A DNA stretch of 64,000 nt. Origin: Escherichia coli (GTDB lineage Bacteria; Pseudomonadota; Gammaproteobacteria; Enterobacterales; Enterobacteriaceae). The stretch lies in NCBI RefSeq assembly GCF_036507355.1, contig NZ_AP027877.1; one strand, written 5' to 3'. The position numbers were made by a program. Below, in pieces: positions 15,001-21,000 of the stretch (positions are counted from its first letter, which is position 1; every line of letters begins with the position of its first letter).

Positions 15001-18000
15001 CGGGAAGAACGCTGTTTAGCGTGAAATCTGCGGAATTAAGTCGAATTCTTAACCGCTCCGCAATGCTTTTGTAGATCATCTCTAGATCTCTTTTTTGCCT
15101 GCAAGCCCGGGGAATGCGCCCACAAGTTCTGCCTAATCGATTGAAAAAACATCTTTTTTTTAAAGATGTGTTCGATGCTGTGTACCAGTGCTCACAGATG
15201 TCTACTTTTTCGCGAAAACGTAGATCTCTAACGCCCAACGAAAAGCATGAAAGCGATCACGAATCCCATTGGGTCGTCATGTTCTGCCGATCGCATCTTC
15301 CTATCCTCGCTCCAGGCCTGCCGCATAACCAATCAGGCTTCCTACTTACAGAATTGAGAAAAGAGGATGTGGAAATGCTCAGTCAAATTCAACGCTTTGG
15401 CGGCGCGATGTTTACGCCAGTGCTGCTGTTTCCCTTCGCCGGGATTGTGGTGGGTCTTGCCATCTTGCTGCAAAACCCGATGTTTGTCGGGGAATCACTG
15501 ACCGATCCAAACAGTTTATTCGCGCAAATCGTACACATTATTGAAGAGGGCGGTTGGACGGTATTCCGTAATATGCCGCTGATTTTTGCTGTCGGTTTAC
15601 CCATTGGCCTTGCTAAGCAAGCGCAGGGGCGTGCTTGTCTGGCGGTGATGGTGAGTTTCCTGACCTGGAACTATTTCATTAATGCGATGGGAATGACCTG
15701 GGGAAGCTACTTCGGCGTCGATTTCACTCAGGACGCGGTGGCAGGTAGCGGTCTGACAATGATGGCCGGGATTAAAACCCTCGATACCAGCATTATCGGC
15801 GCAATTATCATTTCCGGCATTGTGACGGCGCTGCATAACCGTCTGTTCGATAAAAAACTGCCGGTGTTTCTCGGCATTTTCCAGGGGACGTCTTATGTGG
15901 TGATTATCGCCTTCCTGGTGATGATCCCCTGTGCCTGGCTGACATTGCTCGGCTGGCCAAAAGTACAAATGGGGATTGAATCTCTGCAAGCGTTCCTGCG
16001 TTCGGCGGGTGCGCTTGGGGTGTGGGTTTACACCTTCCTCGAACGTATTCTGATCCCAACCGGTTTACACCACTTCATCTACGGACCGTTTATCTTTGGT
16101 CCGGCAGCTGTTGAAGGCGGCATTCAGATGTACTGGGCGCAGCATCTGCAAGAGTTCAGTTTGAGCGCCGAGCCGCTGAAATCATTGTTCCCGGAAGGCG
16201 GTTTTGCCCTGCACGGTAACTCAAAAATCTTTGGTGCCGTGGGCATTTCTTTAGCGATGTACTTCACTGCCGCACCTGAAAACCGGGTAAAAGTGGCGGG
16301 CTTGCTGATCCCCGCAACCTTAACCGCCATGCTGGTGGGAATTACCGAACCGCTGGAATTTACCTTCCTGTTCATTTCACCGTTGCTGTTTGCGGTACAC
16401 GCCGTGCTGGCGGCCTCAATGTCGACCGTGATGTATCTCTTTGGTGTGGTGGGCAACATGGGCGGAGGTCTGATTGACCAGGTTTTACCGCAAAACTGGA
16501 TCCCGATGTTCAGCAACCACGCGGATATGATGCTGACCCAAATCGCCATTGGGTTGTGCTTTACCCTGCTGTACTTCGTGGTTTTCCGCACCCTGATACT
16601 GCAGTTCAACATGTGTACGCCGGGACGTGAAGATGCGGAAGTGAAACTCTACTCAAAAGCCGAATACAAAGCCTCGCGAGGCCAAACCACCGCGGCAGAG
16701 CCAAAAAAAGAGCTGGATCAGGCTGCCGGTATCCTGCAAGCCCTGGGCGGGGTCGGCAATATCTCCAGCATTAACAATTGCGCGACGCGTCTACGTATTG
16801 CACTGCATGACATGTCACAAACGCTGGATGACGAAGTCTTTAAAAAGCTGGGAGCGCACGGCGTCTTCCGTAGTGGCGATGCCATTCAGGTGATCATTGG
16901 TCTGCATGTATCCCAGCTGCGTGAACAGCTCGATAGCTTAATTAATTCTCATCAATCAGCAGAAAATGTTGCCATTACGGAGGCAGTATAATAACCAAAT
17001 TCTCAGTGGTTGTCGCAGGCGGTGGAAGCACCTTTACGCCAGGCATCGTGTTGATGCTCCTGGCGAATCAGGACCGTTTCCCGCTTCGTGCACTGAAATT
17101 TTATGATAACGATGGTGCGCGGCAGGAAGTGATTGCCGAAGCCTGTAAAGTCATCCTTAAAGAAAAAGCGCCGGACATTGCGTTTAGTTACACCACCGAT
17201 CCTGAAGTGGCGTTCAGCGACGTTGATTTTGTCATGGCGCACATCCGCGTCGGCAAATACCCGATGCGCGAACTGGATGAAAAAATCCCGCTGCGCCACG
17301 GCGTTGTTGGTCAGGAAACTTGCGGACCCGGCGGAATAGCGTACGGCATGCGTTCCATTGGCGGCGTCCTGGAACTGGTGGATTATATGGAAAAATATTC
17401 ACCAAACGCCTGGATGCTCAACTACTCCAACCCGGCAGCCATTGTCGCAGAAGCCACGCGTCGTCTGCGCCCGAATGCGAAAATCCTCAACATCTGTGAC
17501 ATGCCAATCGGTATTGAAAGCCGGATGGCGCAAATTGTTGGGCTGCAAGATCGCAAACAGATGCGCGTGCGCTACTACGGCCTGAACCACTTTGGCTGGT
17601 GGACATCAATTGAAGATTTGCAGGGCAACGACCTGATGCCCCAGCTGCGGCAATATGTCTCGAAGCACGGTTATGTTCCACCGCAGCAAGATACACATAC
17701 TGAAGCGAGCTGGAACGACACCTATGCAAAAGCGCGGGATGTCCAGGCACTGGACCCGGATACATTACCAAACACCTATCTGAAATATTATCTCTTCCCG
17801 GATTATGTCGTTCAGCATTCCAACCCTGAACATACCCGCGCGAATGAGGTGATGGAACATCGCGAGAAACAGGTTTTCGATGCTTGCCGCGCCATTACGG
17901 CGGCAGGAAATTCAGCGGCGGGCAAGCTGGAGATTGACGAACATGCGTCATACATCGTCGATCTGGCGGCGGCAATTGCCTTCAACACCCAGGAGCGGAT

Positions 18001-21000
18001 GTTGCTGATTGTGCCTAACAACGGGGTAATCCATAACTTTGATGATGAAGCGATGGTCGAGATCCCGTGTCTGGTCGGGCACAACGGACCAGAACCACTG
18101 GTGGTCGGCGATATCCCGCAGTTTCAGAAAGGGTTAATGAGTCAGCAAGTGGCGGTGGAAAAACTGGTCGTGGACGCCTGGGAACAGCGTTCATATCAGC
18201 ACCTGTGGCAGGCGATTACGTTGTCGAAAACGGTACCGAGCGCCTCGGTCGCCAAAGCTATTCTGGATGAGTTGCTGGAGGCCAACAAAGCGTACTGGCC
18301 AGAGTTACGTTAATTGTGTGGACTGGCATCCGTTGGGTGCTGGTCCGTATTCTTTAGCACGGCTGAAGGCGCATAACCAAATTTATGTTTAAAGGCTTTG
18401 CTGAAATGAAAGGAGTCGAAGAAGTTGAGCGTATCAGCGACTTCGCCAACCGAGTTTCCTTGTTGCTTTAATAGCGATAGCGCCAGATCCAGACGCGCAT
18501 CGAGGTAATATTCTTTCGGCGTCTTTCCGGTATAGCGTAAAAACAGACGACGCAACCAGGCTTCGCTACAGGGGATCGTGGCAGCCATATCGGCTACGCT
18601 CCAGCGTTGTTGCAGACTGGCATGTAAAGTGGCAATTAATTTTTCAATTTGCCGCCGTTGTGGATCTTTTTTACCGTCTGCGTACATAAGACAAATCCAC
18701 TGATAAATAATTTTCGTCAGAAAAGCGACTGCCAGATTATTTTTTATTGCTTCTGGTGAAGTTATTAACTCAGCAACTTCGGTGAGTTCCTGATTATAAA
18801 TTTCGCCATTATAAATAACGCTTTGCTGACCAACGGGAATATCCATCATACTGGTGGGGGTAAATTCCATCCAGTACTGTTCCCAGACTAAACCTTCACA
18901 GTGATAAGAGTGAATATCCATTGGCTTTAAAAATATAATACAGTTGCCATGCAGAGTTATTTGTTCGCCATTCTTTAAAAGAATTTTCCCACATCCTTGT
19001 ACGGTATACACCGCAACCCATGAGTTGGCGATAATCGGTTTCTTCTTGTCCCGCGGCCAGATCACCCGGTAATGCTCGTCGGCGTAGGTATGCCAGAGCG
19101 AGATCAGAGAAATTCCGCTGGAGATCACATTTTCGTTAATCAATAAGGGAATATTGTACGGAGTTTCGTTTTTTACATCTGAACTTTGCAATTTTCCATT
19201 CATTTTAATATCCCTCCAGCGAATTATGCTCACAACCTGAACTTAACAGAAAACAATCCGTTCAGGGATACGACGTTTGTATTTTAAGAATCTGACTGCC
19301 TGACCCGACGCATTTTACCTCTCCCTATATTCATGCGTCCGGGACATAAACATAAATAAGGGCTATGAGATGAATTCGTTACAAATCTTGAGTTTTGTCG
19401 GTTTTACGCTGCTGGTGGCGATCATCACCTGGTGGAAGGTTCGCAAAACAGATACCGGATCGCAACAAGGCTATTTTCTTGCCGGACGTTCACTAAAAGC
19501 GCCGGTTATTGCCGCTTCGTTAATGTTAACCAACCTTTCCACGGAACAACTGGTTGGTCTTTCCGGGCAGGCCTACAAAAGCGGCATGTCGGTGATGGGC
19601 TGGGAAGTGACTTCAGCGGTGACGCTGATCTTCCTCGCGCTAATCTTTTTACCGCGCTATCTGAAGCGCGGCATTGCCACCATCCCCGATTTTCTGGAGG
19701 AACGTTATGATAAAACGACGCGTATTATCATCGACTTCTGCTTCCTCATTGCCACCGGCGTCTGCTTTCTGCCGATTGTTCTCTACTCCGGCGCGTTGGC
19801 GCTCAACAGCCTGTTTCACGTCGGGGAATCGCTACAGATTTCTCACGGTGCGGCTATCTGGCTACTGGTAATTTTGCTTGGTCTGGCGGGAATTTTGTAT
19901 GCGGTGATCGGCGGACTGCGCGCAATGGCAGTGGCGGACTCCATCAACGGTATTGGGCTGGTTATCGGCGGGTTGATGGTGCCGGTATTTGGCCTGATCG
20001 CGATGGGCAAGGGCAGCTTTATGCAGGGCATTGAGCAAATTACCACCGTTCACGCCGAGAAATTAAACTCAGTCGGTGGCCCGACCGATCCCTTGCCGAT
20101 TGGCGCGGCATTTACCGGTTTAATTCTGGTGAACACCTTTTACTGGTGTACAAATCAGGGCATCGTGCAACGCACGCTGGCGTCAAAAAGCCTGGCGGAA
20201 GGGCAAAAGGGGGCGCTGTTAACGGCGGTGCTGAAAATGCTCGACCCGCTGGTACTGGTGCTGCCAGGGTTGATTGCGTTTCATCTGTATCAGGATCTAC
20301 CGAAAGCCGACATGGCCTACCCGACACTGGTCAATAACGTTCTGCCAGTGCCACTGGTGGGTTTCTTCGGCGCGGTGTTATTTGGTGCGGTGATCAGTAC
20401 CTTCAACGGCTTTCTGAATAGCGCCAGTACGTTATTCAGTATGGGTATTTACCGTCGCATCATTAACCAGAATGCCGAGCCGCAGCAGCTGGTCACCGTC
20501 GGGCGCAAATTTGGTTTCTTTATCGCTATCGTTTCGGTGCTGGTAGCGCCGTGGATCGCCAACGCGCCGCAGGGGCTGTATAGCTGGATGAAACAGCTCA
20601 ACGGCATTTACAACGTGCCGCTGGTTACCATCATCATTATGGGCTTTTTCTTCCCGCGCATCCCGGCGCTGGCGGCAAAAGTGGCGATGGGGATTGGCAT
20701 AATCAGCTACATCACCATCAACTATCTGGTGAAGTTCGACTTCCATTTCCTCTATGTGCTGGCCTGTACGTTCTGCATCAACGTGGTCGTGATGCTGGTG
20801 ATCGGTTTTATCAAACCGCGCGCCACGCCGTTCACCTTCAAAGATGCGTTTGCGGTGGACATGAAACCGTGGAAAAACGTCAAGATCGCGTCAATTGGCA
20901 TCCTGTTCGCGATGATTGGCGTCTATGCCGGGCTGGCTGAATTCGGCGGCTACGGTACGCGCTGGTTAGCGATGATCAGTTATTTCATTGCCGCCGTAGT

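Follow-up and report, generated by a model that had tools for sequence, protein, structure and literature searches.

The closest described relatives of the locus studied here are alpha-glucoside systems that pair an EIICB permease of the phosphotransferase system (PTS) with a hydrolase of glycoside hydrolase family 4 (GH4). For AglA and AglB of Klebsiella pneumoniae, passages of PMC5309279 that cite Pikis et al. 2006 state that the two proteins in Escherichia coli K-12 support growth on alpha-methylglucoside, isomaltose and sucrose isomers and, with Thompson et al. 2001 as a further source, that AglA uses EIIA-Glc of E. coli in trans. Maltitol has also been reported as a substrate of the AglA/AglB pathway (PMC12728616). 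According to the same passages of PMC5309279, the EIICB permease GlvC of Bacillus subtilis also functions together with the E. coli protein EIIA-Glc, and the K-12 homologues of the genes are described as cryptic or truncated. Here, we analyse the corresponding locus in a stretch of 64,000 nucleotides from E. coli (RefSeq assembly GCF_036507355.1, contig NZ_AP027877.1), which is referred to as the window throughout. The locus comprises the regulator gene yidP, a divergent EIICB permease gene in a single frame and a GH4 hydrolase gene, whose conserved ATG start codon reads ATA as the result of a single G to A change at position 16993.

As judged from its sequence, the locus represents the E. coli orthologue of the Klebsiella aglA-aglB pathway. 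The operon type, the substrates and the decay in K-12 are already known, and full-length alleles are annotated in ~30% of complete E. coli genomes. The original prediction described the operon of the window as intact. This description holds for the permease, for YidP and for the body of the hydrolase gene, but it fails at the start of the hydrolase gene.

Start codon of the hydrolase gene

The GH4 6-phospho-alpha-glucosidase gene (aglB or full-length glvG type) extends over 16991..18313 on the plus strand and comprises 440 codons with an open body. Its conserved initiation codon at 16991..16993 overlaps the permease stop codon by 1 nt, an arrangement typical of termination-reinitiation coupling. 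RefSeq orthologues are annotated as 440-aa 6-phospho-alpha-glucosidases that start at the equivalent of window position 16991, where the permease stop codon has its final base. In the window, TAATG has become TAATA. The junction reads GGAGGCAGTATAATAACC in the window, GGAGGCAGTATAATGACC in strain D8 and TAATGACC in the other loci, five genomes with ATA excepted; every other locus that was read at the hydrolase start has ATG.

The rarity of this change can be expressed in numbers. Of the 4276 complete genomes in which the locus is found with a 66-mer centred on the start codon, only 5 match the window exactly over this 66-mer, and the remaining 4271 differ. Two of the five ATA genomes were verified at sequence level. 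All five carry the K-12-type deletion and with it an 815-bp pseudogene, so that the combination of a full-length hydrolase gene with ATA is absent from the other complete genomes (5426 searched). The exact 435-aa product that would result from the next canonical start is unrecorded in the public gene-call collection, and a 38-mer containing the ATA was not found in the metagenome contigs of the Joint Genome Institute (JGI). Because ATG is kept nearly throughout the complete genomes with the locus, the hydrolase start is under constraint.

The five ATA genomes (L005, L006 and L015-L017) differ from the window at 16781, 16796, 17064 and 17164. These differences in the ATA haplotypes suggest that the ATA shared by the window and the five genomes reflects either recurrent mutation or a conversion tract of at most 268 bp. 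Inheritance of the ATA together with the lineage of the K-12-type deletion was weighed against these differences in the flanking haplotypes. We also considered contigs with the rare YidP substitution L24V as members of the same lineage as the window. They were ruled out, as they have ATG and are only ~99.0-99.2% identical to the window.

The signals for translation initiation are placed for the conserved position. The Shine-Dalgarno (SD) sequence GGAGG at 16979..16983 (plus strand) lies 7 nt 5' of position 16991, and the duplex with the anti-SD sequence is calculated at -9.5 kcal/mol before 16991; a value of -8 is reached at only 2% of operon positions. The 20 nt before the GTG at 17006..17008 (plus strand) yield +0.9 kcal/mol. 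This GTG without SD represents the sixth codon of the native gene and is located 14 nt after the permease stop, with GGAGG 22 nt upstream of it. No in-frame ATG, GTG or TTG occurs upstream of 17006 in the GH4 frame, which excludes an N-terminally extended hydrolase. GTG 17006 is the only canonical start codon available, and the window has no usable start of this kind at the conserved position. The hydrolase frame of 435 aa that had been described from the window is indeed open over 17006..18313, but it begins at codon 6 of a native 440-aa gene. In the GTG product, four residues precede the GxGS motif, while 71 of the 74 full-length sequences in the alignment (73 diverse GH4 representatives and the native 440-aa query) have at least six.

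Permease, regulator and hydrolase body in their surroundings

The permease gene, of Klebsiella aglA type and corresponding to K-12 glvC and glvB as a single frame, is intact at 15375..16991 on the plus strand. Its ATG at 15375 is located 7 nt 3' of GAGGA, and the frame closes after 538 aa at the stop codon 16989-16991, as the original prediction had it. The protein matches the NCBIfam model TIGR02005 (alpha-glucoside-specific PTS transporter subunit IIBC) over its full length (positions 1-524 of 524) with 959.2 bits at a cut-off of 607.3 bits. In one uninterrupted frame, the Pfam domain PTS_EIIC (PF02378) at residues 10-346 is followed by PTS_EIIB (PF00367) at 453-482 with its phosphorylatable Cys, and the motifs GITEP at residue 322 and CATRLR at 469 are found. 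The Pfam domain search detected no EIIA domain in the permease protein. Three private nucleotide changes are found in the permease gene of the window; they are silent, since the protein is identical to that of eight other alleles. With 59,050 blocks of the public collection listing it, the exact protein is so common that it is uninformative on lineage. Over 14 alleles, the ratio of nonsynonymous to synonymous polymorphism (pN/pS) amounts to 0.014.

Upstream of the permease gene, yidP is encoded divergently on the minus strand (14363..15079). The GntR-type regulator that had been noted there is confirmed as intact. It is a GntR/HutC-type protein of 238 aa with a GntR helix-turn-helix domain (PF00392, residues 3-64) and a UTRA domain (PF07702, residues 87-224), and its extent equals that of yidP in RefSeq. 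It carries the private conservative substitution L24V (nucleotide 15010). In E. coli B (B-StaR), a 79-bp deletion in yidP (window 14819-14897) has left an annotated frameshifted pseudogene next to intact permease and hydrolase genes; this strain could represent a natural version of the operon without its regulator.

The 295-bp intergenic control region between yidP and the permease gene (15080..15374) contains a 34-bp palindrome, AGATGTCTACTTTTTCG/CGAAAACGTAGATCTCT, at 15196-15229. A CRP-like element, TGTAC-N6-TCACA, at 15181-15196 abuts this palindrome, and TAGATCTCT occurs again at 15083. We regard the elements at 15181-15229 as candidate activator and YidP operator sites only. The scan for sigma-70 promoters and terminators was uninformative for this region, without any match to the sigma-70 consensus.

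The body of the hydrolase gene appears sound. The protein matches PF02056 (Glyco_hydro_4) with 223.6 bits at residues 6-184 and PF11975 (Glyco_hydro_4C) with 189.2 bits at residues 195-415. It aligns to the 6-phospho-alpha-glucosidase of K. pneumoniae (6DUX) with 915 bits and 89.3% identity over 438 residues and to GlvA of B. subtilis (1U8X) with 748 bits and 72.8% identity, while the 6-phospho-beta-glucosidase 1S6Y is matched with 210 bits only and the NCBIfam alpha-galactosidase model with 181 bits, under its cut-off of 486. These scores place the hydrolase of the window in the phospho-alpha-glucosidase branch rather than with the phospho-beta-glucosidases or alpha-galactosidases, as far as homology can assign it. 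GGGS at residues 10-13, Cys169-Asp170, His200 and Tyr263 are all present. G10, C169, H200 and Y263 each recur in 71 of the 73 diverse GH4 representatives; at position 170, 44 of them have Asp and 21 have Asn. From the GlvA literature, we take GxGS to be the dinucleotide-binding motif and Cys-Asp, His and Tyr to form the Mn2+ and catalytic site.

Compared with strain D8, the hydrolase gene differs at 5 nt only. Start aside, A346V (codon 346, GTC for Val, 18026..18028, plus strand) is a private change and the sole residue in which the window departs from all nine further full-length alleles of E. coli. Ala occupies position 346 in these nine alleles, which were compared by nucleotide sequence, as well as in the five closest homologues with solved structures. 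Among the 73 GH4 representatives, 40 have Ala and 4 have Val there, and Thr, Ile, Cys and Ser are also seen. A346V was considered as a second inactivating lesion and rejected as decisive, Val being natural in 4 of the 73. All nine other full-length alleles translate as an uninterrupted 440-codon frame, and 440-aa gene calls exist at two further loci. Across nine full-length alleles, pN/pS is 0.058. Together with the value for the permease, this indicates that the full-length hydrolase is a gene under selection in the strains that keep it.

The gene order is yidE, yidP (minus), the PTS gene (plus), the GH4 gene (plus), yidL (minus), yidK and yidJ, which is the yidP-glvCBG-yidL arrangement of K-12. 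The locus is carried by 4284 of the 5426 complete E. coli genomes. The window lies at the start of the chromosome. It opens with a GTG-initiated open reading frame (ORF) of 467 codons, which we take to be dnaA, and several genomes align with the window from their position 1. Over the first 25 kb, the best identity to any of the 5426 genomes is 98.9% at maximum. Across 14363-19233, the window has 11 private single-nucleotide polymorphisms (SNPs) in comparison with up to 18 loci, 3 of them in the intergenic control region. By these measures, the source of the window looks like a sparsely sampled lineage.

Above the gathering score, Rfam has zero matches within 14363-19233. Elsewhere in the window, its matches are AsdA, the antisense RNA of dnaA (511-591, minus), CssrF/ES036 (6068-6110, minus), a ROSE_2 thermometer (11490-11562, plus) upstream of two small HSP20 genes that are ibpAB by position, istR (26240-26369, plus) and tRNA-Sec (63705-63795, minus). 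An ORF of 2929 aa at 43424-52213 (plus) encodes an inverse autotransporter of the intimin/invasin type, in which IAT_beta is followed by many Big_1 and Invasin_D3 repeats. tRNA-Sec (selC) seems to lie farther from dnaA here than in K-12, and the stretch with the inverse autotransporter probably contains extra DNA.

Consequences for alpha-glucoside utilization

The permease, a member of the Glc family, would take up alpha-glucosides and phosphorylate them at O-6. Since it is without an EIIA domain of its own, it presumably receives the phosphate from EIIA-Glc (Crr), which would act in trans along with EI and HPr. The GH4 hydrolase, with NAD+ and Mn2+, would split the 6-phospho-alpha-glucoside into glucose-6-phosphate and the aglycone, and the divergent YidP presumably represses the operon. 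Without the ATG, hydrolase would arise only from initiation at the near-cognate AUA or from re-initiation at the GTG 14 nt downstream, and the GTG product would be devoid of residues 1-5 and of a portion of the first Rossmann strand.

In E. coli reporters, initiation at AUA reaches ~0.02-3% of AUG and initiation at GUG 10-100% (bioRxiv 10.1101/063800). In three native E. coli gene pairs, a gap of +14 nt between stop and start caused a loss of 40-80% of termination-reinitiation (PMC10666635). We consider it probable, with some reserve, that the supply of hydrolase is strongly reduced or that the product is truncated and possibly less stable, which would leave the pathway crippled or leaky and not fully working. 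By their sequences, both the regulator and the permease are intact, and they most likely work. The ATA lesion would be a route to the cryptic state that is different from the one taken by K-12. A working alpha-glucoside system had been suggested for this strain, and in support of it the K-12 lesions are absent and the permease is full-length; the start of the hydrolase is lost, however, and the SD sequence serves 16991 and not the GTG.

Several points could speak for a mild defect. In some of the native E. coli pairs, re-initiation at +14 nt was kept at 20-60% (PMC10666635). As GTG is a canonical start codon, useful amounts of the truncated enzyme could result. Among the 73 GH4 representatives, there is one (P0100) whose N-terminus is just as short. 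Elsewhere, the hydrolase gene is undecayed, with its 5 nt of difference from D8 and A346V as the one other amino-acid change. The ATA lesion could therefore be recent, tolerated or a base-calling error.

The alternative that survives best, although we regard it as unlikely, is a system that works, in which the hydrolase is adequately translated from GTG 17006 or from the AUA, the 435- or 440-aa enzyme is active and the strain grows on alpha-glucosides. It agrees with the open gene body, in which all conserved catalytic and cofactor residues are retained, and with the intact permease and YidP; high levels of a catabolic enzyme may also be unneeded. The two possible starts differ in their merits. 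At the AUA, translation would profit from a strong and correctly spaced SD sequence but be limited by the low efficiency of this codon, at best 3% of AUG in the reporters. The GTG would have the higher efficiency of GUG and the retained re-initiation of the native pairs on its side, but the 20 nt before it offer no SD sequence, GGAGG being 22 nt upstream, and its product has a shorter N-terminus than 71 of the 74 aligned family sequences and was never called in the public collection. The retention of ATG in 4271 of 4276 complete genomes speaks against adequate translation from either start, as it marks the start as constrained.

We give rather little credence to a variant in which the ATA is real and used, such that a low and tuned amount of hydrolase is made from the AUA, with its 1-nt overlap and strong SD sequence, or by re-initiation at the GTG. 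If true, this would be a natural non-canonical or shifted start that sets the expression of a carbohydrate-utilization enzyme in E. coli. A single reversible step between ATA and ATG would in that case turn the alpha-glucoside pathway from cryptic to active or back, and the presence of this G to A change in five other genomes, on another haplotype, would hint that such switching is recurrent.

A sequencing or assembly error in a genome that really has ATG, and hence an ordinary intact allele, is very unlikely. A single base is concerned, and a full-length gene with ATA is seen in no other sequence among the 5426 genomes, the gene-call collection and the JGI metagenome contigs, but substitution errors are rare in finished assemblies, and five independent complete genomes with an identical G to A change demonstrate that it does occur. 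The 11 other private SNPs across 14363-19233 also fit a poorly sampled lineage and not an error-prone base.

Least probable of all, and hardly to be expected, is a locus that is silent or vestigial throughout E. coli, so that the K-12 lesions and the ATA would both be immaterial: our literature search found no natural E. coli phenotype for the locus, the K-12 homologues are called cryptic or truncated in the passages of PMC5309279 cited above, part of the hydrolase gene is missing from ~2,630 genomes and the intergenic region yielded no sigma-70 consensus promoter, but the low pN/pS values of 0.058 and 0.014, in alleles with a synonymous divergence of 3-5%, indicate strong purifying selection, and the nine other full-length alleles are all uninterrupted, with two further loci that have 440-aa calls.

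If the pathway is crippled or leaky, as we favour, a metabolic model or a phenotype forecast that takes the strain as alpha-glucoside-positive (isomaltulose, trehalulose, turanose and the like) on ORF integrity alone could be wrong. The general lesson is that an open frame taken from the first GTG can hide the loss of the native start codon; the finding itself is of little weight beyond annotation hygiene. With a permease that works without enough hydrolase, alpha-glucosides could even inhibit growth through accumulation of sugar phosphates.

Comparison with K-12 and other known systems

The MG1655 annotation lists glvC with 368 aa, glvB with 161 aa and glvG as a pseudogene (b3683, b3682 and b4556). 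The split of glvC and glvB and the truncation of glvG, which the original prediction had assumed, are thus borne out by annotation and alignment. Frameshifts had been anticipated as their cause. The alignment to K-12 located the lesions, but they are an amber codon and a repeat-flanked deletion of 508 bp, not small frameshifts. Permease codon 369 (16479..16481, plus strand) is CAG for Gln in the window and TAG in K-12, where the change at 16479 splits glvC from glvB; a glutamine-inserting amber suppressor (supE) would restore Gln369 in laboratory strains. The segment missing from K-12 (17584..18091, plus strand) is present in the window, and its out-of-frame loss shifts the hydrolase frame after His200 and leaves 212 aa. 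It is bounded by 8-bp direct repeats, GAACCACT, at 17584-17591 and 18092-18099, of which K-12 retains one copy. The position of the deletion exactly between the repeats suggests an origin from slippage or illegitimate recombination. For strain gb37, which has both K-12-type lesions, the PGAP annotation notes 'internal stop'.

The window carries neither lesion, but freedom from the K-12 lesions is not special to this strain. The segment absent from K-12 is present in 1652 of the 5426 complete genomes, including E. coli B, O157:H7 and D8, for which RefSeq calls both permease and hydrolase intact. Besides K-12, ~2,630 complete genomes lack it (4284 minus 1652). In many genomes of the deletion type, the permease gene is still uninterrupted, as seen at the loci L005-L007, L010 and L015-L017, and at least ~1,577 complete genomes have the deletion without the K-12 amber codon, a lower bound obtained by subtraction of at most 1,053 non-identical 67-mers from the ~2,630 genomes of the deletion type. 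This would be explained either by a recent deletion that recombination has spread or by a use of the permease in the absence of its hydrolase.

The gene identities, the lesions and their frequencies in the population are shown by the present analysis, and we infer the substrate range, the EIIA partner, the repression by YidP and the size of the translational defect. The substrates expected for the window are those of the Klebsiella pathway, namely alpha-methylglucoside, isomaltose, maltitol and the five sucrose isomers. Arbutin, which had been proposed as a test alpha-glucoside, is a beta-glucoside and has to be dropped from the set. The arbutin label stems from an old glvC annotation and is still used in PMC2617782.

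K-12 glvC-glvB-glvG occupies the same chromosomal site between yidP and yidL with the same genes, ~99% identical to the window. The lesions are distributed differently, as K-12 glvG keeps the ATG that the window has lost, while the window is free of the amber codon and the deletion of K-12. The full-length E. coli alleles of D8, E. coli B and O157:H7 PV15-279 (RefSeq proteins WP_000160112.1, WP_000160104.1 and WP_000160122.1) share with the window the same operon, the 538-aa permease and the full-length hydrolase body, but they begin the 440-aa hydrolase at ATG where the window has ATA. In B. subtilis, the GH4 phospho-alpha-glucosidase GlvA (MalA, 1U8X) is paired with the EIICB permease GlvC, like in the window; the regulator and the gene order of the Bacillus glv system differ, and maltose is its physiological substrate. 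Like the window, Klebsiella has the EIICB permease gene followed by the GH4 hydrolase gene (AglA/AglB, PDB 6DUX and 6DVV). The permease of the window belongs over its whole length to the NCBIfam subfamily of AglA, TIGR02005, whereas its hydrolase is set apart from AglB by the ATA start and by A346V.

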